Assembly (NCBI GenBank): GCA_005400705.1 | Contig: GCA_005400705.1_4079.1 | Length of the DNA: 64,000 nt | From: Escherichia coli | GTDB taxonomy: Bacteria; Pseudomonadota; Gammaproteobacteria; Enterobacterales; Enterobacteriaceae | Direction: 5' to 3' (one strand) | Position numbers and translations under genes: made by a program | In this document: positions 7,687 through 50,089 of the stretch, piece by piece | How positions within the stretch are numbered: the first letter of the stretch is position 1 | Layout of the letters: every line of letters starts with the position of its first letter | Notes under the pieces: generated by a model | Databases searched by the model: none | Told to the model about the DNA's origin: nothing | The model's input: the letters and a program-made list of their open reading frames with translations, nothing else

Positions 7687-8073
7687 ATGAATACAAGTTC
7701 AGTCCTAAAAGCAATTGGTGGTGTTTTACTCATTGAAGTAAAAGGTGAGCCAAAGCTATGCTGTTTAGAAGATATGAAGAATACAAAACACTTCAGTACT
7801 GGTCAGATTTTCAATGCCATTCGTATTCTAAATGACAAATCCATTGCTGATTATGGAAAAGTTTGGCCTGTATATCAAAATGCTGATGGTGATATCAGTA
7901 CTGATTGGAAAACAATTGAGGCGGTACGACAAAGTTGTGAGAGTGATTGGGACTTCATTGTTGAAGTTTGTGATCAACTACAAGAAGATGTTCCAGAAAT
8001 TGTTGAACGAAAAGAAGTTCTAGCACGACTTGAAAAATTCCGTCACGGAACACTACAGTATGACACAATCTAA
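7687..8073 (+). CDS. hypothetical protein (128 aa)
   Basis: ORF track; AACGGAGATATAG before ATG. Confidence 0.55.
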   Translation: MNTSSVLKAIGGVLLIEVKGEPKLCCLEDMKNTKHFSTGQIFNAIRILNDKSIADYGKVWPVYQNADGDISTDWKTIEAVRQSCESDWDFIVEVCDQLQEDVPEIVERKEVLARLEKFRHGTLQYDTI

Positions 8074-8122
8074 TCTGCTTATTAAAAATATCTAATTAAC
8101 ATTATATAAAAGGAATTTAAAA

Positions 8123-8428
8123 ATGGAAGACAATGGAATGAAATTTGATATGTTTGAAGGTGTACCAGAGTTCGATTTCAACAAACTTGAAGAAGGTGAG
8201 GAATCAGAACTAGTTAGTGTTACACTTAAAGCAGATTCTAAAAAGAAATATTCATCATCAGTACGTTCACGTTCACAAGAAGAATACGAATCATTTATTG
8301 AAAGTATTCATTATGAAACATTCCATCACGCAGATGGAACTCCATATGAAGTACGTGTAACAGTACTGAAGCCTGAAGTAAATCCAATGGAAAATCTACG
8401 TCCTGTTTACTGCTGGGCAAGTCACTAA
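8123..8428 (+). CDS. hypothetical acidic protein (101 aa)
   Basis: ORF track; AAAGGAA before start; terminator follows. Confidence 0.55.
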   Translation: MEDNGMKFDMFEGVPEFDFNKLEEGEESELVSVTLKADSKKKYSSSVRSRSQEEYESFIESIHYETFHHADGTPYEVRVTVLKPEVNPMENLRPVYCWASH

Positions 8429-11096: not shown

Positions 11097-11626
11097 AAGA
11101 AACATGTGTATTAACGTTTGGTCGTATTAATCCTGTACATCGTGGACATGGTTTAGTTTTTGAAAAGGCCAAAACATTACAAGAACAGTACAATGCTGAT
11201 TTAAAAATATATCTAAGCACCAGTACTGACAATATAAAAAACCCACTCCCACCTGAACTAAAAATGTATTATACAGAGGGATTCTATCCTTCAGTGCAAG
11301 AGAACATCTACACAGAAGACAATCTGTTTGATATAATGAGAGAACTGGATGGAAAGTACTTAGATGTTCTTTTCATATGTGGTTCTGACCGTATTGATTC
11401 TTTTCAAAAAACTCTTGACATGTACAATGGTAAGTTGTATAATTTTTGTAGTATAAAAGCAATTCAGGCAGGTATTGACCGTAATGTAAGTCAATATAGC
11501 TCAACACAAATGCGTAACTTCGCAAAAAATGAAGATTTTGATAGTTTTCGTGAGTTTTTACCTGGAAATGACGAGGACTTAAAAATACAATTATTTGAAG
11601 ACGTTATAAAATACATGAGGAAATAA
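11093..11626 (+). CDS. HxGH-family nucleotidyltransferase, NMN/NaMN adenylyltransferase-like
   Basis: TFGRINPVHRGH (H/TxGH motif) and later SSTQMRN (ISSTxIR-like) typical of NadD/NMNAT-class enzymes; ATGA overlap with methyltransferase gene. Confidence 0.55.
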   Translation: MKETCVLTFGRINPVHRGHGLVFEKAKTLQEQYNADLKIYLSTSTDNIKNPLPPELKMYYTEGFYPSVQENIYTEDNLFDIMRELDGKYLDVLFICGSDRIDSFQKTLDMYNGKLYNFCSIKAIQAGIDRNVSQYSSTQMRNFAKNEDFDSFREFLPGNDEDLKIQLFEDVIKYMRK

Positions 11627-11628
11627 TT

Positions 11629-11922
11629 ATGTCAGTACTGTTCAAAACCAATCCAGTACTTTGGGATCAAAATGAGCAATCAGGATTTCGTTCCATCCAT
11701 GTTGAATACAAAGGTAATACTGTAGTTGCAATTATTGCTAACAAAACTCTAGGAAACTGGACTGCACAGGTTGTTCCTATGGGATATTCTTACACATCTG
11801 ATGAGGTTCAATTCCTGGCTGAACTATATCGTCAAGTGCCGTTTATCATTAATGTACTAGAAGGTAATGATACATTATCACATGAAGATGTGATTAATTT
11901 TCTTGGAAACTTACATGTGTGA
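11629..11922 (+). CDS. hypothetical protein (97 aa)
   Basis: ORF track; GAGGAAATAATTATG. Confidence 0.5.
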   Translation: MSVLFKTNPVLWDQNEQSGFRSIHVEYKGNTVVAIIANKTLGNWTAQVVPMGYSYTSDEVQFLAELYRQVPFIINVLEGNDTLSHEDVINFLGNLHV

Positions 11923-12202
11923 TGAAATAAATCTTACAGGATATTTTTTACAAGAATCAATGATTAAATTTAGTGATAAATTTTCAGTACTGGATGGTAT
12001 CGAAATGTGGCATGTCAAACCACTGTTCCACACTTTCAGTAAAGAGCACAAAATGTTATTGACTGAAGCCAGTAAATCAAATAACATATGTGAAATCAAA
12101 ATTGGTGTAAATGTCTATAAAGGGATGGTTATCTTTTTTGACAATAACAGCAACTACTTTTATATTGTTAAGGAGCATTACGTTGACAAATACAAATACT
12201 AA
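11903..12202 (+). CDS. hypothetical protein (99 aa)
   Basis: ORF track. Confidence 0.5.
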   Translation: METYMCDEINLTGYFLQESMIKFSDKFSVLDGIEMWHVKPLFHTFSKEHKMLLTEASKSNNICEIKIGVNVYKGMVIFFDNNSNYFYIVKEHYVDKYKY

Positions 12203-12797
12203 TACATATTTCCGTTATCTTCGCTTAGGTCTTTCCCTACGTCCGATCCGTGGAAAGTGCGATTCACTCGCTGACCTTGACTATGCATATGCATTACATC
12301 ATGAAGGTGTACAGTATGTATTGGGTGATTATGGTGAATTTGAAGAAACAAATGACAGTACTGGAATTAATGCTGGTGTAGAAAATCTTAACAACATTGC
12401 TAACAGTTCTCGCCATGACATTGTGTTACAGATTCAAAACTTTATTGAGCAGCACACAGGTAAACGTGTTTGGTGCTATGTCGGTACGGATGCACAAATG
12501 TCAATTTCATTCGGTAACGATGAAGGATATGTTGCACAGCTTATTATGGATTTTGAATCTGAAGAGAAGTTTTTAGAATTCAAAGAAAAGATTATTCAGT
12601 CACTTGTTGATATGGGTATCCCCGAAGATAAAATGCCAGAAGTCCAAAACATTGATGAATTTGTTTTGATTCCATCTGATGAGAAATATGATGCAATGTT
12701 TACTGCTCTTAATATTCCAGGAGTTATTGTGGAGTACTTTGATGATGGTGATGATAGTATCTATATCGATCTAGATGACGATGACGACGATGAATAA
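12111..12797 (+). CDS. hypothetical protein with poly-acidic C-terminus (DDGDDSIYIDLDDDDDDE); start uncertain
   Basis: ORF track; 92-nt overlap with upstream gene; no internal in-frame ATG until far downstream. Confidence 0.4.
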   Translation: MSIKGWLSFLTITATTFILLRSITLTNTNTNTYFRYLRLGLSLRPIRGKCDSLADLDYAYALHHEGVQYVLGDYGEFEETNDSTGINAGVENLNNIANSSRHDIVLQIQNFIEQHTGKRVWCYVGTDAQMSISFGNDEGYVAQLIMDFESEEKFLEFKEKIIQSLVDMGIPEDKMPEVQNIDEFVLIPSDEKYDAMFTALNIPGVIVEYFDDGDDSIYIDLDDDDDDE

Positions 12798-33857: not shown

Positions 33858-34353
33858 TACTAATATCTGGTTAGATAACATAATCAAGACATTAGAATTA
33901 ATTAAACTTACATTACAAAAAACTACAGATATTGAAATTAATATTAAAAAAGAAATATTAAACTATTATCATAGAAACAAATATAGCACGTTTATCTCTA
34001 AATTAATTTATGGATTATATGATATTGAAGATATTTGCATCGGTTACAGTACTGGTATTTGCTTCACTGTTAATGGTTTAAAAAATGATTTAAATTTCAG
34101 ACTTTCCGATGAAGAGCAAAAGTTTCGTAGATTTTGTGATAATATTATGGATACAGATAAAATTACATTTGTTATTGAATTAAATCAAACGTGGTCTACA
34201 TATGCAGATAAACCATTTGAAATTAATGAAACAGATGTGTTAAACTATATTCGAGTTATGAAAATTCATGATTTGTGTAAAAACGCATTGTTAAGTATTG
34301 GAGCTTATAATGAAACATACGACTTGGTTGAAGATAGCAGAAGTAGTTGCTGA
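33829..34353 (+). CDS. hypothetical protein
   Basis: ORF track; overlaps start of cd. Confidence 0.4.
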   Translation: MKYTHLSIDDTNIWLDNIIKTLELIKLTLQKTTDIEINIKKEILNYYHRNKYSTFISKLIYGLYDIEDICIGYSTGICFTVNGLKNDLNFRLSDEEQKFRRFCDNIMDTDKITFVIELNQTWSTYADKPFEINETDVLNYIRVMKIHDLCKNALLSIGAYNETYDLVEDSRSSC

Positions 34354-34789
34354 GGAAAGTAAATGTATTTCACAAAAAGTTGGTTGTGTTATTGTTAAAA
34401 ATAACCGAGTATTGAGTACTGGTTACAATGGTACTCCATCAAAACAACCAAATTGCTGTGATGTGAATCAACACTTAGTCAATGATGGGCGTTTTCAAGA
34501 CTGGGTTAGTGATGAAGCAAAGCATGAACATCATGAGTGGAGTAATATTCATGAAATCCATGCTGAAATGAACGCTTTACTCTATAGTTCTCCTACTGAA
34601 CGTCAAGGTGCTACTCTTTACACAACACTACAACCATGTTATACTTGTTCTAAGTTGATCGCAGGTAGTGGGATTTCACGTGTAATTTATCTCAAAAATT
34701 ATCCTCGTACACCACCAGAAGCTATTAAAGTACTGGAAGATGCTGGAATTATTGTTAATTGCATTTATGATAAGGGTCTTGATAAATGA
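34310..34789 (+). CDS. cd: dCMP deaminase
   Basis: HAEMNAL and PCYTCSK zinc-binding motifs; N-terminus collinear with T4 Cd as recalled; GGAG before ATG 34310. Confidence 0.85.
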   Translation: MKHTTWLKIAEVVAEESKCISQKVGCVIVKNNRVLSTGYNGTPSKQPNCCDVNQHLVNDGRFQDWVSDEAKHEHHEWSNIHEIHAEMNALLYSSPTERQGATLYTTLQPCYTCSKLIAGSGISRVIYLKNYPRTPPEAIKVLEDAGIIVNCIYDKGLDK

Positions 34790-37427: not shown

Positions 37428-37436
37428 GGATTGAAT

Positions 37437-38189
37437 ATGATATCAGAAAAATTTATAAGCAATGAAGGTAAAAAGCGATTACTGATTATATCAGGTGCAG
37501 GACTTTCTGTTGAAAGTGGTATGGAACCTTTTCGATTTGATGATGGTTTGTGGGATACATTTAAAATTAATGATGTATGTAACATTGCGAGTTTAACTAC
37601 AAAATATCATGTTGTTCATTCTTTCTATAATACATTACGTGTAAAATTGGGACAATGCGAACCGAATGCAATGCATTATTTTATAAAATCGTTAGAAGAT
37701 CAATATGGTGATTGCTTCCTTCATATGACTTCTAACATGGACGATCTTTATACTCGTATTGGTGGTCATGAGCTTAAACTTCATGGAAACTTGTGTGAAG
37801 TTATTGAAAATTATAGTATCAATTCCGATGATTATAATGTTATTAACTGCGGATACGAACCATACATACCAAAACATGATGTTTTTGCTAAACCAAATGT
37901 AGTAATGATTGGAGAATATCATCGTTATGTTGATGGTATTCGCTTACCAATTTACGAAGAACGAAATAATGTGTTGAAATCTCTTAATGAAAATGATACA
38001 GTTATTGTAATTGGTAGTAGCGATACAGTACTGGTATGGTCGAGATTAGCAGCAGCATTGCCATGTTATAGTGTTAATGTTAACATTCGTAAAAATGATA
38101 ATGATTTTTTGTTTAATGAAAAAGTTATCAAGCCAGCAACCAAAGCAATACCGCATCTAGAGACTATAATTAAGGAACGTATGAAATGA
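37437..38189 (+). CDS. Sir2-family (sirtuin/CobB-like) NAD-dependent protein
   Basis: GAGLSVESGMEPFRFDDGLW, TSNMDDLYTRIG and LHG align with CobB GAGISAESGI / TQNIDNLH / HG motifs; AAGGA before ATG 37437. Confidence 0.75.
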   Translation: MISEKFISNEGKKRLLIISGAGLSVESGMEPFRFDDGLWDTFKINDVCNIASLTTKYHVVHSFYNTLRVKLGQCEPNAMHYFIKSLEDQYGDCFLHMTSNMDDLYTRIGGHELKLHGNLCEVIENYSINSDDYNVINCGYEPYIPKHDVFAKPNVVMIGEYHRYVDGIRLPIYEERNNVLKSLNENDTVIVIGSSDTVLVWSRLAAALPCYSVNVNIRKNDNDFLFNEKVIKPATKAIPHLETIIKERMK

Positions 38190-38737
38190 GTGTTAAAGAA
38201 GTTCCCTTTGGTGAATATGGCACACGTGCAAATTTTGTATTTTGTTATTTCTTTGCAAGAAAATGCAACCCTTACAAAAACTATGAGTTGAATGATATAC
38301 CAGAAGTAAATTTAGTATTACTGCAATTACGATGGGATGGTCTTCTTGGTGGATGTGGTGGAACCGTAGAAAGTACTGATATCTCACTAGAAGATGCGTT
38401 GTGTCGTGAAGTTCAAGAAGAAATGGATTACAATATTTTTGTTTCCCATCTTCGACCACTCAAAACTTTTGAAATTTACCCAGGTGCAAACAGTCATAGT
38501 TTTAGCTATGAAGTGAGCTATGACGAGTTGAAACACATTAGAGATGGATACACTAATGCTAAACATGCAAGTGCAGAAGTTGCTGGTGTAAATTTATGTC
38601 ATATTTCTCGTTATTCTAAGGGACAAAATCGAGAAGCGGGATATCATAATCTTATGACACAGAACTTCATCGGTACAGCAAAACAAGAATTGGAGTATCT
38701 GGTTCAAAAAGAAAACTTACTAATTAGTTATCTATAG
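38186..38737 (+). CDS. Nudix-like hydrolase (divergent Nudix box)
   Basis: GGCGGTVESTDISLEDALCREVQEEMDY carries the REVQEE core with non-canonical spacing; ATGA overlap with Sir2 gene. Confidence 0.5.
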   Translation: MSVKEVPFGEYGTRANFVFCYFFARKCNPYKNYELNDIPEVNLVLLQLRWDGLLGGCGGTVESTDISLEDALCREVQEEMDYNIFVSHLRPLKTFEIYPGANSHSFSYEVSYDELKHIRDGYTNAKHASAEVAGVNLCHISRYSKGQNREAGYHNLMTQNFIGTAKQELEYLVQKENLLISYL

Positions 38738-38746
38738 GAGTTTAAC

Positions 38747-39067
38747 ATGTCTTACTCAATGTTTTTGGATGATATTCGTGATGCAAATCTATATTATCCA
38801 AACCAAGATATGGTGGTATGTCGTGACTTTAAAAGTGCATGTGAATATGTTATTGAAAATGGAATTCCAGCATTTGTATCATTCGACCATGACTTGGGTG
38901 ATGTGAGCGAAGACGAAAAGACTGGATATTCTTTTGCTAAGTTTCTTATTGATTATATGTTTGATAATAATATTAAAGAACCGTTTGAGTACTTTGTTCA
39001 CAGTAGTAATCCTGTTGGTAAAATTAATATTGAAACATACTTAAACAATGGATTTAACGCATTATGA
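38747..39067 (+). CDS. receiver-like (CheY-fold-like) small protein
   Basis: FLDDIRD acidic pair, VSFDHDLGD, HSSNPVGK: pattern similar to receiver / cyclic-phosphate-processing receiver domains; from memory. Confidence 0.4.
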   Translation: MSYSMFLDDIRDANLYYPNQDMVVCRDFKSACEYVIENGIPAFVSFDHDLGDVSEDEKTGYSFAKFLIDYMFDNNIKEPFEYFVHSSNPVGKINIETYLNNGFNAL

Positions 39068-39366
39068 TTCAAACACACATCAAAAGTCTTATTTGTACTG
39101 TTCTGTTAGGTGCAGGAGTTCTTTGGTTCGGACAGTATCACGAGAACACTAAGCGTACCAACATTCACTACAATACCGCAGAAGTTGTTAGTTTAGGACA
39201 ATGTAGCGAGTCCAAATGTTCATTTATGTATAAAACCCAAAGTGGTGAAGTACGTAATGGACTATCAAGAGAACCAGTTTCAATTGGTCAACTTGTTTAC
39301 CAGGAGTGCTGGGAAGAAAAGGTTCGAGGTTCACGTTGCTATGTTGAATACGAACCAAATATGTAA
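39064..39366 (+). CDS. small protein with N-terminal TM helix
   Basis: ATGA overlap; LICTVLLGAGVLWFG hydrophobic segment. Confidence 0.5.
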   Translation: MIQTHIKSLICTVLLGAGVLWFGQYHENTKRTNIHYNTAEVVSLGQCSESKCSFMYKTQSGEVRNGLSREPVSIGQLVYQECWEEKVRGSRCYVEYEPNM

Positions 39367-39426
39367 TAATCCGAGTCAATAACATTAGTCGAGTGCAAGG
39401 ATGTACTCATAACTCAAGGATGTTTT

Positions 39427-40866
39427 ATGAAAAAATATACAATTGACACAAACGTACTACTATCTGACCCGAATGCATCTATTGCTTTTGATGGTGCTGC
39501 AATCATTCTACCATTTACAGTACTGGAAGAATTAGATTCGATTAAGAGTCGTAATGTAGATGTTTCACGCGATGCTCGTGTTGCTATTCGTAACATTGAA
39601 GCAATTATTGCAGATGCATCACATGACGAGATTAGTAGTACTGGTGTTAATATTGCTGATGTTCATACCAATATGAATCCTGATAGCAAATTGTTTGTTA
39701 TTACAAACGAAGAAGCTGAGGCACTAATTCGTACTAAAGGTACAGAAGAGAAAGTTCAAACCCTTCTCAAAAGTACTGTACCTGATGATAAAATCATTCT
39801 GGTAGCTTTAGCAACAGAATCAGTACTGGTAACTCGTGATATCAACATGCGTATCAAAGCACTAAGTTATGGTGTCGAGGTACAAGATTATCGCCATGAT
39901 ATTGTTATTGGTGATAGTGATTTGATTCACATTGGTCAACACCATCTGGAAATCAATTTTTGGGAAGTATACAGCAACTTAACCAATACTAATATTCAAT
40001 CCGAACAAGTTGGTCGTCGTTTGTATCATTACATTTCTAAAAGCTTGATTGAACATCTGCTTCCACAAAATCTATGCATCGGTGATTATCTATATGATGA
40101 TGCTGACGTATTATTTGTGTACGAAGGACAATCAGCAATTGAGGAAGATGATGGAACACTAACACCAGAAGATATTTTGGTATTCCAAGATATTGGACAA
40201 TCAGTAGCTTTACGTGCTAAAGTATGGGATATTAAAGCAAAGAATATCCAACAAGCACTCGCCATCAACAGTATTCTCGATCCTGATGTACATCTAACAG
40301 TACTGCTAGGTTCTGCTGGTACTGGTAAAACACTAATTACGATTGCTACTGCATTAGAATTAGTACTGGAAAAATGTAAATACGACCGAATCATCTTCTC
40401 TAAAACTCAAGACTCACAGTTTGAAGATATTGGTTTCTTGCCAGGTTCAGAAGCAGAAAAAGTGATTCCATTCTGTGGAGCCGCAATTGACGCGTTAGAG
40501 TTTCTTCATAAAGATGATGCTAACCCACAAGGTAGTATTGAAGAGATTATGAAACGTAATGTTATTCAATTTAAAGCACTAAACTTTGTACGTGGACGTT
40601 CATTCACCAACACTATTCTAGTAGTTGATGAATTCCAAAACATTACACCTGCACAAGCCAAAACAATCTTGACACGAGCAGGATTAAACTGTAAAGTAGT
40701 AATTATGGGTAACTTGAGTCAGATTGACAGTAAGTTTATTAGTCCTGTTAACAGTGGTTTGACATATGTAACTGAGAAGTTTAAAGATTGGGCAGGTTGT
40801 CGTGTCATCGAACTTGAAGGTGTTGTTCGCTCACCACTAGCTGAATTTGCTGAAGAAAATATGTAA
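39427..40866 (+). CDS. phoH: PIN-domain + PhoH-like ATPase
   Basis: N-terminal YTIDTNVLL..LEELD (PIN-like); Walker A GSAGTGKT; Walker B VVDEFQN. Confidence 0.85.
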   Translation: MKKYTIDTNVLLSDPNASIAFDGAAIILPFTVLEELDSIKSRNVDVSRDARVAIRNIEAIIADASHDEISSTGVNIADVHTNMNPDSKLFVITNEEAEALIRTKGTEEKVQTLLKSTVPDDKIILVALATESVLVTRDINMRIKALSYGVEVQDYRHDIVIGDSDLIHIGQHHLEINFWEVYSNLTNTNIQSEQVGRRLYHYISKSLIEHLLPQNLCIGDYLYDDADVLFVYEGQSAIEEDDGTLTPEDILVFQDIGQSVALRAKVWDIKAKNIQQALAINSILDPDVHLTVLLGSAGTGKTLITIATALELVLEKCKYDRIIFSKTQDSQFEDIGFLPGSEAEKVIPFCGAAIDALEFLHKDDANPQGSIEEIMKRNVIQFKALNFVRGRSFTNTILVVDEFQNITPAQAKTILTRAGLNCKVVIMGNLSQIDSKFISPVNSGLTYVTEKFKDWAGCRVIELEGVVRSPLAEFAEENM

Positions 40867-40934: not shown

Positions 40935-41123
40935 ATGGCTAAACAACCTAAGAAAAAAGAACCAGTAGCAAAAGTTAAGAAAGAGAAAGTTATTCAATCT
41001 AAAGAACAACGTATGTACGAACAACGTAAGAGTGAAACCCTATCCGGTCTACAAGCTCTACGCAAACAAGGTGTACTAACTCGTGCACAGTACCGTGAAC
41101 TAGTAGCTCAGAAAGGTTTTTGA
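40935..41123 (+). CDS. small lysine-rich basic protein (62 aa), apparently monocistronic
   Basis: GGAGATATAAAATG; own promoter upstream and terminator downstream. Confidence 0.55.
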   Translation: MAKQPKKKEPVAKVKKEKVIQSKEQRMYEQRKSETLSGLQALRKQGVLTRAQYRELVAQKGF

Positions 41124-41227
41124 TTCATTTGAAGACATATTGTGGAGTTCTTAATAAATACTTTTATAAGAATAATAATACTTTTTATTAAATTAAAAAG
41201 AACTCCATGTGTTATTTCAGTTTTTCG

Positions 41228-41255
41228 TCCCTGTCTTTTGGCAGGGATTTTTTTA
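41228..41255 (+). terminator. rho-independent terminator
   Basis: stem TCCCTG...CAGGGA followed by T7. Confidence 0.7.
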
Positions 41256-41350
41256 TATCTATATCTTGACAAAAGGAACAAATAATGAGAACATGTACTA
41301 AAGGAAGAATGACTTTCCATTAGGTTATTTTAACTTAAAGGAGATTTCAT

Positions 41351-41908
41351 ATGTTTTTTGACCAAACATTTACGTTGTATCACGATTCTGGTAAAGTTGA
41401 GATTGTAGACGATCTACTTCAATACATTGCTGACCATCAAGGGATAGATCGTTTCCACAGTAAGATGAAATTTGATTTAGCAGAATTCAACAAAAAGAAT
41501 CGTGAAACTTTTTGGAAGAACCGTTTCTATTACGAAATGTTCCCAGAAGAGTTTGTGGGTTATTATCTTTGTACTGAAAAAGGATTACTTGTATCTCCTG
41601 ATTTACTTATGGGTGAATACATGATACTCTATAATGAGTACTGGGAACATAAACGTAAAGCTCGTGATACGGAATGGCGACATAAGCGTTCGTATATGTA
41701 CAAACATAACCACTCCCGATACAAGCGTCCTAAGACTCAGCAAGAGCGTCGTATGGCTTGTGCAGTACTGAAGGATGAGGGGGAACCTGATATACGTGGA
41801 AGACGTAAGATGCGTTCATTACCATCGTATTGGGACGATATCAGAACAAGACATAGTACTGGCTGGAAATACAGTACTAAACGTAAACATCAATACAAAG
41901 GGAGCTAA
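41351..41908 (+). CDS. hypothetical protein with Arg/Lys-rich C-terminal half
   Basis: AAGGAG before ATG. Confidence 0.5.
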   Translation: MFFDQTFTLYHDSGKVEIVDDLLQYIADHQGIDRFHSKMKFDLAEFNKKNRETFWKNRFYYEMFPEEFVGYYLCTEKGLLVSPDLLMGEYMILYNEYWEHKRKARDTEWRHKRSYMYKHNHSRYKRPKTQQERRMACAVLKDEGEPDIRGRRKMRSLPSYWDDIRTRHSTGWKYSTKRKHQYKGS

Positions 41909-41926
41909 TGCTCCCTAATTTTATAG

Positions 41927-42265
41927 GTGAACTTTATGAACAAAATTGACGTTACTGTAGTGATTGGTTATATTGAAATTGAACCGTGTGGCATTGATAC
42001 CTTTATTGACACTCTTAATAAGTATCGTGCTGAATATAACGGTCCCATTAGTCTTTCACCCGACGGTGGTTACGGCGGTTTTCATGGATACAATGTAATT
42101 TGGACCAGAGAAGAAACTGACGAAGAATATAATACACGAATTGAAGCTGAATCTAAAAGATGTGAAGAAATTGAACGTCAAGAAATGAAACACTTAATGA
42201 ACAAGAAATCATTAAGTACCGAAGAGAAATCTAAACTGCTAAAATACATCAAGGATTACATGTAA
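41927..42265 (+). CDS. hypothetical protein (112 aa)
   Basis: ORF track. Confidence 0.5.
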   Translation: MNFMNKIDVTVVIGYIEIEPCGIDTFIDTLNKYRAEYNGPISLSPDGGYGGFHGYNVIWTREETDEEYNTRIEAESKRCEEIERQEMKHLMNKKSLSTEEKSKLLKYIKDYM

Positions 42266-42915
42266 TGAAAAATGTAACTCAAGAAAAGATTCTGTACCTT
42301 GCAAAGTACAATGGTGGTTTCAATATCATTAGCCGTGAGTACAGTGGTAATTTGGCTAAGTTGATTGACAGTTTGTTAGAATTTGATTTCATTAAATGGG
42401 GAACTAATGAACTTTGGTACGAATATGCTGGTCAGAAATGGGAAAGTGATTATGATAATGCAATACATTCATACACTATCACCAAAGCAGGTGAAGTTCG
42501 ATTAGCCATTATGCGTTGTGCATATACTTACAAAAATCATAAAGGTGAAGAAAAACATATTCGCAGAAATGAAGAGCTATTACTTCTCATGGAAGCAGCA
42601 AAAGTTACAATGCATGATTTGTTCCACCACCCACGTTGGTATGAAAATCTAACAAAAGCAGAGTACAAAGCTTTACGTTACATTGATGAACAAAACAACA
42701 CCCCAGTTGAAGTTGATGATGTTAGTGATGATGAACTAAGCCTCAAAAATGTATTTGAAAGTACCAGTACTGAAAGTATTACAGACATTTCTGTACAGAT
42801 GGCACTAAAAGCAATGGAACTTTTCAAGACACAATATGAAGGACACAGTGCTGAAGAAGTAGAGCGTGAGTTCATCACACGCGTACAGATTGCATTGTTC
42901 CAATCGAAAAAGTAG
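42265..42915 (+). CDS. hypothetical protein (216 aa)
   Basis: ORF track. Confidence 0.5.
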   Translation: MKNVTQEKILYLAKYNGGFNIISREYSGNLAKLIDSLLEFDFIKWGTNELWYEYAGQKWESDYDNAIHSYTITKAGEVRLAIMRCAYTYKNHKGEEKHIRRNEELLLLMEAAKVTMHDLFHHPRWYENLTKAEYKALRYIDEQNNTPVEVDDVSDDELSLKNVFESTSTESITDISVQMALKAMELFKTQYEGHSAEEVEREFITRVQIALFQSKK

Positions 42916-43122
42916 GATGATATGAAATATGAACATCAGTGATGGGTTATCATATAAAGAAGCAGGTAAAGATGGTGTCAAAGGTGAAGCTGTAGATCTT
43001 TGCATTTGTGCACTTGACATGTTCGCTTTGTAATGCGATAATATGAGTTCAGAAGAGATGGAACGTGAGTTCCTTACTTACATGAATGTTAAACTAGCCA
43101 AATGGCGTAAATCAATTCAATA
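42916..43122 (+). pseudogene. degenerate duplicate of the 3' end of the upstream gene, split across two frames
   Basis: translations ...AVDLCICALDMFAL* and MSSEEMEREFLTYMNVKLAKWRKSIQ* resemble upstream C-terminus ...ISVQMALKAMELF...SAEEVEREFITRVQIALFQSKK. Confidence 0.3.
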
Positions 43123-43132
43123 GGTATTTTAA

Positions 43133-44104
43133 ATGAAAACTAAAATTATTTCTGAACAAAAAATTGGCAATACTACAGTACTGAATCTTGAAGTTCAAGG
43201 TCTTAGTAATGTTCGTTCTCTTACGGTTTGTACTCAGAGAGATGATTTGACTGATTTCTATAGCTCAGAATACATGTCAGAAGAACCTTGGGGTATGGGA
43301 TGGTTGGACGGTAGTAGTTATATCAGTTCACGTTATAGTTTTGGTTCTCATGAAAATATTGAACAATTAAAAAATGAGTATATTAAACTCAGTGATACTA
43401 TTGAAATGAAAGAAGAAGATTGTGTAGAACTTTTCATTTTTGAATTCGATGCCGGAAATGGTAATTCATTACTAGTAAGTAATATTGAAGAACATTTAAT
43501 GTATCATGAAATTGAAGATGTAGATTTTGAAAGTATTAAAAATGTTGTTCATATGGTTGGTGGTAGTATTACTGATGATTCAGATATCGGTCATAATATT
43601 TCACTGTGCTTAATTTCTCATCCAAAAACTCGTGGTTTTAAAGTTCCACAAGATGAAACTTACGTGTCTGAAACTGCTGATGAAGGAATTTATCCTTGGA
43701 ATGATTATGTAGAATACTATGGTCATTTCTGTTCTGATACAAAAGAACTGAAAAAAGGCGAACAATATTTTGATATGTTCCGTGCTGCACAGCGTTTAGT
43801 ACTGAATAATACTGAACTATTTCCTGATCGCGGCGAAGAAAATATGATTGATATTATCTTCAAGAACTATGATTATGTACAGAACATTCCTGATAATGTT
43901 CATTTGGAATATGTTCACGGTTCTTCAAACAAATTCTATAATATTGAATTGAATGCTCCAGTGTGTGAAGTAATTATTGAGTACGGTGCTATTGGTAAAA
44001 CCAGTACTACTGATGGTGAAGAATTCGAAACTATTGAAGAAGCACGTAAGTTCTTCGAGAAGAAAGTAATTTCCAAAATTAAAAGTGGTTATAGCCCAAA
44101 ATGA
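43133..44104 (+). CDS. hypothetical protein with WGR-like C-terminal domain
   Basis: C-terminus SSNKFYNIELN...EYGAIG...EEFETIEEARKFFEKKVISKIKSGY follows the WGR-domain pattern with WGR replaced by EYG. Confidence 0.45.
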   Translation: MKTKIISEQKIGNTTVLNLEVQGLSNVRSLTVCTQRDDLTDFYSSEYMSEEPWGMGWLDGSSYISSRYSFGSHENIEQLKNEYIKLSDTIEMKEEDCVELFIFEFDAGNGNSLLVSNIEEHLMYHEIEDVDFESIKNVVHMVGGSITDDSDIGHNISLCLISHPKTRGFKVPQDETYVSETADEGIYPWNDYVEYYGHFCSDTKELKKGEQYFDMFRAAQRLVLNNTELFPDRGEENMIDIIFKNYDYVQNIPDNVHLEYVHGSSNKFYNIELNAPVCEVIIEYGAIGKTSTTDGEEFETIEEARKFFEKKVISKIKSGYSPK

Positions 44105-44481
44105 AAATCACACGCTTTGGTAAAACCTTTGAACTAAACATTGTTTCTGTTTATAAAAAAGGAAAATCAGGAAAGTTAAGCACTGATAATATTAGATTTG
44201 TTATTAGTGATTATTATGATATGTTTAATCAGGCATTTGAAGAAAATAAATTTGGTTTGATTTTATGTAAACCACAAAAACCGGAATTAGGTATTTTGGA
44301 TTTAAGAACTGATAAGTCTGATTTTATTGGTAATCTTGATATTATTGAATTTAAAGTTGATATATCAAAAGAACATTTTAGAGTTAAAAACTATAATTAT
44401 TACAAAGTTGATATTAATTCTATCGAAGTACAAAACGTACTTGATGAACTTATCAGTAATAATTCGTGTTTTACTAAATGA
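44101..44481 (+). CDS. hypothetical protein (126 aa)
   Basis: ATGA overlap. Confidence 0.5.
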   Translation: MKITRFGKTFELNIVSVYKKGKSGKLSTDNIRFVISDYYDMFNQAFEENKFGLILCKPQKPELGILDLRTDKSDFIGNLDIIEFKVDISKEHFRVKNYNYYKVDINSIEVQNVLDELISNNSCFTK

Positions 44482-44493
44482 GAAAAAAATATC

Positions 44494-44727
44494 ATGAAAA
44501 ATATATTCATTACATTAACAATATTTGTATCCATTATTCTCTGTGGTTGTGCTCCTAAAGTTGATGAGATGGATGCTGAAATCATCCGTCAAGGTTTAAC
44601 AAAACTAAATCACCAAGGAACACTATACGCATGTCATACTATGCGTCATGGGCAAGATCTTAATCTCATGTGCAGGAAGATTGTGAATCGCAAACGTCTT
44701 AATACTGTTCCGAAGGATGCACAATGA
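44494..44727 (+). CDS. putative small lipoprotein (77 aa)
   Basis: MKNIFITLTIFVSIILCGCAPK: signal peptide with lipobox-like LCGC. Confidence 0.5.
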   Translation: MKNIFITLTIFVSIILCGCAPKVDEMDAEIIRQGLTKLNHQGTLYACHTMRHGQDLNLMCRKIVNRKRLNTVPKDAQ

Positions 44728-44894
44728 AAGAAGTAATTGACTACAAATGTAAAAATTGTGGCAAAGATAAGGGTAAGCATTCAGTACAAGGGATGGCTTG
44801 CCCGAATCCAGGTCGTGGTAATTTCAGCGGGTTCAGTACTGAAAAGTCTTACGAACCGGATCATACCAAACCTGTAATGGGTTATAAATTATGA
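44724..44894 (+). CDS. small zinc-ribbon-like protein (56 aa), below ORF-track cutoff
   Basis: ATG 44724 overlapping upstream stop; CKNCG and MACPNPG; ends in ATGA overlap with next gene. Confidence 0.4.
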   Translation: MKEVIDYKCKNCGKDKGKHSVQGMACPNPGRGNFSGFSTEKSYEPDHTKPVMGYKL

Positions 44895-45250
44895 GTGATT
44901 ATGTAGCATTTCTTCATCGCTTTGGAGAAGCTAAAGAAAAACATATTATCCGTATGCCATTATATGGTGAAAAAGACTGGTACAAAAGTACTATAAGTGT
45001 AGGTGCATTTCGTGACCGTGAAGCTGGATTCTTTCTGGGTAAGCAACATGAACGAGAGGTACTTTGCTCACTGTGGCGTTTGGATGAATGGGATAGTGAG
45101 AACGTAAGAACTGCTGAATCAATGCTGGCTATTGTTGGTATTGCGAACTATCAGCACCCATATGACCTATTACCTACATTTGAACATGCTTCTTTGTTTG
45201 ATTTTTACAAAGCAGTAGGGTATGATTATAAAAAGAAACGTTACATTTAA
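44891..45250 (+). CDS. hypothetical protein (119 aa)
   Basis: ORF track. Confidence 0.5.
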   Translation: MSDYVAFLHRFGEAKEKHIIRMPLYGEKDWYKSTISVGAFRDREAGFFLGKQHEREVLCSLWRLDEWDSENVRTAESMLAIVGIANYQHPYDLLPTFEHASLFDFYKAVGYDYKKKRYI

Positions 45251-45296
45251 TATCAGTACTACCACAGTGGGCAGTACTTTTTAATTGGAGATTACT

Positions 45297-45911
45297 ATGA
45301 CTACATCTGAAAAGTACTGGTGGATTTTGGCTCATCCTAAATTCATAAACAAAGATATGGTTCCAGCTAGGATTGATATAGAACCTCATGATGTGTGTCC
45401 AATGACAAATCGAATTGAAGATTTCAAAGCATTGAATACAAAGACTCAATTTTGGGTAGAATTTCTTTCACCAATGTATATTGAGCAAGACGACGAATGG
45501 GTACAAGCACATGATTATCAATTGGATTGTGGTGGTGATACGTATGAAGAGGCGATTGATAAATTATACAAAAATGTGCTAAACACATATGGTGATTACA
45601 CCCAACAAGAAGCAGATAACACATTTAATAAGATCCATGCATTCAAATCTACTCCATCAATTTTTAATCCTACTAAAACTGTTTGGGAGGAACGACACAG
45701 TTGGAGTTCATGTGTAATCGATGAAGAAACCAAAGAAAAAATCATCGATGATATAAAAAATTTAAAAAATACGATAGAAGCCTTGCGTGAATTCATAATG
45801 TCTTGTACAATAGAACAACAGAAAGAGGCAAAGATACATTTGGAGAGTGAAGAATGTAAACTTTGGGTTCTAGAGAAATCTATTGAAAAGGGTATAGACT
45901 TAGACTTATGA
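45297..45911 (+). CDS. hypothetical protein
   Basis: GGAG 6 nt upstream of ATG 45297 (ORF-track start 45285 is TTG). Confidence 0.5.
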   Translation: MTTSEKYWWILAHPKFINKDMVPARIDIEPHDVCPMTNRIEDFKALNTKTQFWVEFLSPMYIEQDDEWVQAHDYQLDCGGDTYEEAIDKLYKNVLNTYGDYTQQEADNTFNKIHAFKSTPSIFNPTKTVWEERHSWSSCVIDEETKEKIIDDIKNLKNTIEALREFIMSCTIEQQKEAKIHLESEECKLWVLEKSIEKGIDLDL

Positions 45912-46276
45912 ATAGTAAATTGGAGAAACTAATCGAAGAATTACGCCAGATGCCACCTATTGAACAAGTAGGAAATTACAAACGGTATCGTGTTATTGCT
46001 CGTGCACTTGATAAAAAAGGTAGAGTACTGGCAACTCGCACAAATTCTTATACACAGACTCACCCAGTACAGAAGGGTTTCGCCATTCGTGCTGGGCGAC
46101 CGCAAGGTGAGTTTCTTCATGCTGAAATTTCATGTTTACTGGCTGCTCGTGCTGATGTTCATACTTTACTGATTGCACGGATAAGTAAAGATGGAATTCC
46201 TGTTCCGGCTAAACCATGTGAAATTTGCTCATTAGCAATAAAAGAATATGGGGTGAAAGAGATTATCCACACATGA
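45908..46276 (+). CDS. small cytidine/deoxycytidylate-deaminase-fold zinc enzyme
   Basis: HAEISCLL and PCEICS (H[AC]E ... PCxxC) zinc-binding signature; ATGA overlap. Confidence 0.6.
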   Translation: MNSKLEKLIEELRQMPPIEQVGNYKRYRVIARALDKKGRVLATRTNSYTQTHPVQKGFAIRAGRPQGEFLHAEISCLLAARADVHTLLIARISKDGIPVPAKPCEICSLAIKEYGVKEIIHT

Positions 46277-49756: not shown

Positions 49757-50089
49757 ATGGATTTAAAGCCAATTGTGGTTAACAAATACAAAGAACCGTA
49801 TGATGTGTATATTGGACGTGGGTCTAAATGGGGAAACCCATTTACCCATATTAAAGATAAACAAACCAAAGCCGAGTTCATTGTTAGTACAAGAGAAGAA
49901 TCAATTGAAAAATTCAGAGAATACATTATTGAACGTATTTCTTGTGGAGAAGTTAAGATTGATGAATTACTTGAACTCGCAGGGAAACGCCTTGGTTGTT
50001 TCTGTAAACCAAAATCATGTCACGGCGATGTTCTTGTCGAAATAGTGAGTGCAATATTAGATGAATTACCAGACGATAATCAAGGATGA
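49757..50089 (+). CDS. hypothetical protein between nrdD and nrdG
   Basis: ORF track; GRGSKWGNPF motif. Confidence 0.5.
   Translation: MDLKPIVVNKYKEPYDVYIGRGSKWGNPFTHIKDKQTKAEFIVSTREESIEKFREYIIERISCGEVKIDELLELAGKRLGCFCKPKSCHGDVLVEIVSAILDELPDDNQG

Follow-up and report, generated by a model that had tools for sequence, protein, structure and literature searches.

An Arg-less WGR domain joined to an acidic orphan module in a variable cassette of Asteriusvirus-type jumbo coliphages

The gene at 43133-44104 of the window (the whole stretch of 64,000 nucleotides of DNA that was analysed) was found to encode a 323-aa protein composed of two modules, an acidic orphan domain at the N-terminus and a WGR domain at the C-terminus. 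The gene behaves as an exchangeable accessory element, and its two halves have moved independently of each other. The reading that we consider most likely, held tentatively and with less than even confidence, is that the protein works as a non-enzymatic two-module adaptor binding nucleic acid inside the infected cell.

The window is that of an Asteriusvirus-type jumbo coliphage. Positions 41000-46000 are 97.5-99.3% identical (megablast) to coliphages of this type with genomes of about 350 kb, including BF17, slurp01, UB, PBECO4, phAPEC6, G17 and Sharanji. The DNA is AT-rich (about 33% GC) with a positive GC skew throughout, and all the assignable genes in the stretches examined (33.3-50.1 kb) lie on the plus strand, to which all the window coordinates given here refer. 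The gene, delimited by the ORF list and its homologs, starts with ATG and has orthologs such as phAPEC6 gp336c and fEgEco12 g228. Its product is 93-99.7% identical in 17 Escherichia jumbo-phage records, a homolog with 39.6% identity is present in Erwinia phage Hallingskeid, and 27 full-length homologs were obtained by a metagenome protein search.

The earlier note had proposed a WGR-like domain at the C-terminus of this ORF, and the proposal was borne out. The Pfam profile PF05406 aligns to aa 256-322 (43898-44098) from position 3 to position 74 of its 79 positions; the score is 41.9 bits (gathering cut-off, 22) and the E-value 1.1e-10. The same domain is present in all 27 homologs and in three distant relatives. 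The AlphaFold2 model of the full protein, built from the 27-sequence family alignment, reached a mean pLDDT of 90.4 and a pTM of 0.89, and its C-terminal part shows the antiparallel beta-sheet followed by a C-terminal helix that can be superposed on solved WGR domains. When the PDB sequences were searched with a profile of the family C-termini, matches to 2ra8 (E-value of 1.6e-7), PARP3 and PARP2 were obtained, in agreement with the likeness to the PARP family suggested previously. The C-terminal module is a genuine WGR domain.

One detail of the earlier description had to be corrected. The triad was thought to be replaced by EYG, but the HMMER alignments of the family C-termini to PARP3 and PARP2, together with the translation, place W-G-R on Y284-G285-A286 (43982-43990). 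All members of the family have an aromatic residue at the first position (Tyr, or Trp in P0011) and Gly at the second, and the Arg always gives way to Ala, Gly or Pro; the phage domain does not carry the central Trp-Gly-Arg motif. The closest solved WGR domain, that of the bacterial non-PARP protein Q64V53 from Bacteroides fragilis (PDB 2ra8), also has Y-G-K at these positions. Therefore, the variant core is not unique to the phage family, and the W-G-R motif is not strictly required for membership in PF05406. The two proteins differ in that the Arg position is occupied by Lys in 2ra8, and also in their architecture, since the WGR of 2ra8 is N-terminal and followed by an unrelated domain of about 290 residues, whereas that of the phage protein is C-terminal, behind the orphan acidic domain.

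The WGR label of this gene is already known from public phage records. The copies in BF17, slurp01, PBECO4 and phAPEC6 (98.5-99.7% protein identity) are labelled "WGR domain protein" or "WGR domain-containing protein", and the G17 record cites COG3831. Because several GenBank phage records already label the same gene, the WGR observation adds nothing to the public annotation and is not new. What is added here is the orphan N-terminal module seen only with WGR, the residue-level differences from the PARPs, and the cassette, mosaic and domain-deletion behaviour. No paper discussing the Asteriusvirus WGR gene was found in the literature search, and the G17 and UB orthologs carry accessions other than QAY00573.1, the example cited by Iyer et al. 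(2021).

The WGR domain was then compared with that of PARP2, once six residues identified by Obaji et al. (2018; PMC6294510) had served to check the chain offset of the alignment. In PARP2, K130, Y132, K179 and K183 contact the DNA backbone, W151 is stacked against the ribose at the 5' terminus, R153 touches the break on its 3' side, N127 is hydrogen-bonded to R153 and Y201 binds the 5'-phosphate; stable DNA complexes and activation are lost in R153A, N127A and Y201F (Obaji et al., 2018; PMC6294510). The four backbone-contact positions are kept in the phage protein, where K130 corresponds to K267 and Y132 to Y269 (both invariant in the family), K179 to K311 (at least 90% conserved) and K183 to K315 (invariant in the core family and replaced by Gln in two of the three distant relatives). 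The counterpart of W151 is Y284, with the aromatic character maintained. The break-recognition residues are not retained, as R153 is lost (A286; Ala, Gly or Pro in the family), N127 falls on a variable position (S264) and Y201 has no counterpart, the phage protein ending at about PARP2 residue 191 and three residues beyond the WGR domain.

No ART, PARP_reg or any other Pfam domain besides WGR was found in the phage protein. In comparison with human PARP1, PARP2 and PARP3 (PDB 4dqy, 6f5b and 2eoc), it lacks the ART and helical regulatory domains that stand C-terminal to the WGR of DNA-dependent PARPs, as well as the WGR Arg, its Asn partner and the 5'-phosphate Tyr. Its WGR is also neutral and not basic, the net charge of the aligned core being -2 versus +3 to +6 in 2ra8, PARP3 and PARP2. 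The phage WGR cannot act as an allosteric break-activated switch. With the break-recognition residues lost and nothing catalytic after the WGR, the module looks like a backbone-binding anchor at most, and not like a PARP-like sensor-switch. We infer binding to nucleic acid from the kept positions K267, Y269, K311 and K315, and the near-neutral charge of the domain argues for caution on this point.

The N-terminal part of the protein had been left unassigned over about 250 residues. That it belongs to no described family still stands, as no match was obtained in Pfam, PHROGs, NCBIfam, PADLOC or the PDB sequence profiles; it can now be described as an acidic orphan alpha/beta module (aa 1-250, 43133-43882) with a confidently predicted fold. 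The predicted structure consists of a 3-stranded beta-meander, a ferredoxin-like beta-alpha-beta-beta-alpha-beta core and a helical sub-domain, and the domain modelled alone had a pLDDT of 89.2. A Foldseek search against BFVD gave no match at E <= 0.001, and no similarity to known anti-defence folds was seen in the PDB or BFVD. For the protein as a whole, PHROGs gave no family match and PADLOC only WGR_XIII (E-value of 0.022), over the WGR part. An HMM of the N-domain, searched against 1.84 billion representative proteins, recovered its own family together with three distant relatives (342-354 aa in length), each ending in a WGR domain; the remaining match, to an fn3-repeat protein, was spurious. 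All the known copies of the module, in some 30 proteins from phages or metagenomes, are fused to this WGR, and no paralogs of either module were found within the window.

The N-terminal module has a net charge of -27 and a pI of 4.4, and its charge density of -0.108 per residue is among the lowest 4% or so of the proteins of this window. The N-domains of the family are acidic throughout (net -24 to -34, pI about 4.2). Seven residues (G60, G71, N117, G144, D148, D149 and P164) are invariant when the distant relatives are included. N117, encoded at 43481-43483, is the end of the motif LLVSN and is maintained even in the most distant relatives. The invariant acidic pair D148-D149 (codons at 43574-43579) forms part of G144-x3-D148-D149, within the motif GGSxxDDxD (43562-43579), and these invariant alignment columns mark a candidate ligand- or metal-binding or interaction site.

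As judged from the alignments, the two modules have independent recombination histories, with a discordance that runs both ways across the family. Between Hallingskeid (L002 7001-7957) and contig L006 (8001-8960), whose flanks are 85-96% identical in DNA, the WGR shows 100% protein identity (dS 0.20) and the N-domain about 55% (dS 1.2), with the recombination breakpoint near the inter-domain linker. The pair P0013/P0015 shares 55% identity in the N-domain and 99% in the WGR, and the pair P0014/P0023 87% and 83%, respectively. Moreover, in contig L015 (ERR2738550_6342) the syntenic slot of the 320-aa gene is occupied at 8001-8240 by a 79-aa WGR-only gene (P0032) that begins within the inter-domain linker and is a natural N-domain deletion. 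The small stand-alone WGR proteins of jumbo phages (P0032, P0033 and P0034) are 49-63% identical to the C-terminal module; P0032 is without any N-terminal domain, and P0033 keeps only the last N-domain helix. A tyrosyl-tRNA-synthetase-like gene is also present on contig L015, at 11323-12564. Purifying selection acts on both modules and is stronger on the WGR, with dN/dS values of 0.12-0.40 for the whole gene and of 0.05-0.16 for the WGR module versus 0.16-0.49 for the N-domain.

Despite its conserved position, the WGR gene is an accessory gene. According to the megablast coverage, the protein is encoded in 18 of 36 closely related phage records. The coverage and the annotations define a variable cassette at 42929-44536, with blastn breakpoints at 42928 and 44537, which takes in a gene relic, the WGR gene, a 126-aa ORF and the initial codons of the gene that follows. 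A segment of about 216 bp, with the coding sequence of a 59-aa signal-peptide protein, stands in place of 42929-44536 in 121Q (L005), CRJP21 (L004 2130-2345) and similar phages. This replacing protein starts with a signal-peptide-like N-terminus (MKFLLVLIAVLMVLSC...), and each form of the cassette occurs in about half of the 36 related records.

The beginning of the cassette, 42929-43123, looks like an intergenic spacer and is made up of the 3' end of a gene, now broken. Two broken ORFs, at 42929-43033 and 43043-43123, read MNISDGLSYKEAGKDGVKGEAVDLCICALDMFAL and MSSEEMEREFLTYMNVKLAKWRKSIQ, each closed by a stop, and are identical in part to the C-termini of the products of a gene of about 290 aa (L009 7099-7992 and L006 6935-7804) that is the immediate upstream neighbour of the WGR gene in divergent relatives. 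The first fragment is annotated as a 34-aa hypothetical protein in GenBank records. The 216-aa ORF at 42265-42915 is an intact, shortened homolog of the same gene, so that part of the gene is present twice. The relic at the start of the cassette points to acquisition or replacement by recombination. A MazG-like identity for the 290-aa gene, considered for an EExxE...ExxD pattern in its C-terminus, was set aside, with no support from PDB profiles or Pfam.

The promoter scan placed the best sigma-70-like match (TTGACA-17-GATAAT with TG, 11 of 12 matches) at 43014-43042. This match may be accidental because it lies inside the relic coding sequence, in which its TTGACA forms part of the codons for ALDMF. 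A dedicated early promoter was rejected, given that sigma-70-like sites are no more numerous in the region than in shuffles. Downstream, the 126-aa ORF (44101-44481) has an ATG that overlaps the stop of the WGR gene (ATGA), and no family match was found for it. Being translationally coupled to the WGR gene, it was considered as a partner, and this idea was rejected: the ORF is absent from fEgEco12, and therefore not an obligate partner, and unrelated genes take its place in other lineages. It is an independently variable small gene.

The order of the genes around the WGR gene is conserved in divergent relatives, namely Erwinia phage Hallingskeid and metagenomic contigs of 41-78 kb, and runs Acb1-like, SIR2, Nudt16-like NUDIX, cREC_REC, PIN-PhoH, the 290-aa gene, the WGR gene, dCMP deaminase, NrdD, DUF4326 and NrdG. 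In the window, a conserved block at 37431-40866 comprises a SIR2-like gene (37431-38189), a Nudt16-like NUDIX gene (38186-38737), a cREC_REC gene (38747-39067), next to which is a 100-aa ORF, and a PIN+PhoH fusion gene (39427-40866). This order is the same in all the divergent relatives. An Acb1-like 2H phosphoesterase gene lies immediately before SIR2 in L006 and L007 and is found one gene further upstream in L015; it was not seen in L009, and none was detected directly upstream of SIR2 in the window. Such genes have been interpreted as NAD+/cyclic-nucleotide conflict or RNA-repair genes (Iyer et al., 2021; PMC7824862). A functional link between the WGR gene and the SIR2/NUDIX/cREC/PhoH block was considered and rejected, the context being weak with five or six unrelated genes in between. 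The 121Q-like phages keep this block without the WGR gene.

Additionally, the phAPEC6 ortholog gp336c is absent among the 62 virion proteins of this phage detected by mass spectrometry; therefore, the most likely site of action of the WGR protein is the interior of the infected cell. Among the proteins that were detected in the virions of phAPEC6 is its PhoH-like protein (gp341c).

In the adaptor reading, the protein would have an accessory, non-structural role in Asteriusvirus-type jumbo phages and consist of two separable modules. The WGR would hold it on nucleic acid through a PARP2-like face, formed by Y284 together with K267, Y269, K311 and K315, and the acidic, faster-evolving and exchangeable N-domain would be the specificity or effector part, which may bind or block a protein of the host or the phage, or bind a small ligand at N117/D148/D149, at the place where the WGR sits. 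In bacterial ATP-dependent ligases, WGR acts as a portable nucleic-acid-binding appendage (PMC7470946). Several points weigh against this proposal. The charge of the N-domain, added to the near-neutral WGR core, should disfavour DNA binding, and the positions of PARP2 R153 and N127, needed for stable DNA complexes, are lost in the phage WGR. The high pTM of the full model suggests that the two modules pack together, so the nucleic-acid face of the WGR might be occluded. Finally, if the invariant N117/D148/D149 cluster were catalytic, as it could be, the term non-enzymatic would be wrong.

A second explanation, for which there is a case but which we consider unlikely, is that of a counter-defence or host-takeover protein working without nucleic acid, in which the acidic N-domain would be a decoy or inhibitor of a host protein, in the manner of a DNA mimic or a sponge, and the degenerate, Arg-less WGR would serve only for scaffolding or for interaction with proteins. 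The charge density of Ocr, ArdA and other classical DNA mimics is roughly -0.2 per residue, and the N-domain is well short of this value. Neither its charge density nor its fold is of the Ocr/ArdA type, and the DNA-mimic idea was discarded, the acidity being notable but not extreme and having no support from the fold. No likeness to the folds of known anti-defence proteins (PDB, BFVD) and no meaningful PADLOC match were found, the genes intervening before the SIR2-PhoH block separate the WGR gene from it, and the conserved backbone-contact lysines argue that nucleic-acid binding is retained. On the other side, a decoy would fit an accessory cassette of the presence/absence type, an allele replacement centred on the N-domain, the higher dN/dS of this domain (up to 0.49), an acidity conserved across the whole family and a neutral WGR without the R153 and N127 equivalents. 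It would also fit the location in the same conserved region as the Acb1-like, SIR2, Nudt16-like NUDIX and cREC genes, which are NAD+/nucleotide-centred conflict genes according to Iyer et al. (2021; PMC7824862).

It is doubtful that the protein is a phage transcription factor, in which the WGR would bind specific DNA sites and the N-domain, through contact with RNA polymerase or the sensing of a ligand, would tune the early or middle gene programme. MolR-like proteins have an N-terminal WGR and a large extra C-terminal region (DUF4132). The phage protein does not share the architecture of these regulators, WGR being its sole Pfam family and C-terminal. The gene is dispensable in about half of the very close relatives with the same flanks, which would be odd for a regulator of conserved genes, its N-domain is swapped and even deleted, and no WGR with sequence-specific DNA recognition was found in the literature searched. 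Consistent with a regulator are the position of the gene among early/middle-type nucleotide-metabolism genes, the absence of the ortholog from virions and the ferredoxin/ACT-like core of the N-domain, a common ligand-sensor fold. Furthermore, Iyer et al. (2021; PMC7824862) classed the WGR proteins of jumbo phages as DNA-binding (transcription) factors, and the WGR of MolR-like proteins has likewise been interpreted as DNA-binding.

Two further proposals are improbable. In the first, the N-module would be a rapidly exchanged phage effector delivered by the Arg-less WGR to DNA or RNA ends or nicks, where it might, for example, mask phage ends or nicks from host nuclease-based immunity or capture a host factor. 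If this were true, it would be the first function for a viral WGR and a new class of modular anti-defence protein; an N-domain proved to be a host-directed effector would likewise be a new module in the counter-defence repertoire of phages. The second, which we rate lower still, makes the N-module a new enzyme with a metal-dependent active site at N117/D148/D149, directed by the WGR to DNA or RNA ends as in WGR-ligase and WGR-PARP fusions. N117, D148 and D149, along with G144 and P164, are invariant down to 20-26% identity, and in PARPs and ligases the WGR is typically fused to enzymes acting on nucleic-acid breaks.

A role as a PARP-like sensor of DNA damage, or within an ADP-ribosylation system, is highly improbable and effectively refuted by the architecture already. 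In its favour, WGR is the signature domain of PARP1-3 and there are SIR2 and NUDIX genes some 5 kb upstream. Against it, the protein stops right after the WGR with no ART catalytic or helical regulatory domain, the R153, N127 and Y201 equivalents required for PARP2 activation are missing, and the nearest WGR is the bacterial non-PARP 2ra8.

The residual value of the WGR finding is modest but real. To our knowledge, no experimentally defined role exists for WGR domains outside the PARPs, and this phage family is a minimal natural system for studying the role of a lone WGR, which it presents with and without its partner module, with the 121Q-like phages as natural knock-outs and with domain-deletion variants.

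The most distant proteins with both the N-domain and the WGR (P0029, P0030 and P0028) are encoded on the short contigs L012, L013 and L003, whose probable source is another, so far unsampled, group of large phages. The GC content of L013 is 27.5% and one of the neighbours on it is an adenylosuccinate synthetase gene. The other genes of the three contigs have no Pfam match, match only PHROG families of unknown function or, in L012, match a metal-dependent phosphohydrolase.

In the nucleotide-metabolism region of the window, a DUF4326 gene (49757-50089) is located immediately downstream of nrdD, and its counterpart in fEgEco12 and in L009 stands between the anaerobic ribonucleotide reductase genes and that of the activase (nrdG). 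DUF4326 has been predicted to be an enzyme linking NAD+-utilising systems with DNA modification (Iyer et al., 2021; PMC7824862). Two genes of the cytidine/dCMP deaminase family are present in the window, at 34298-34789 and 45908-46276, the former of which also matches, more weakly, models of toxin-type deaminases, MafB19-like ones among them.
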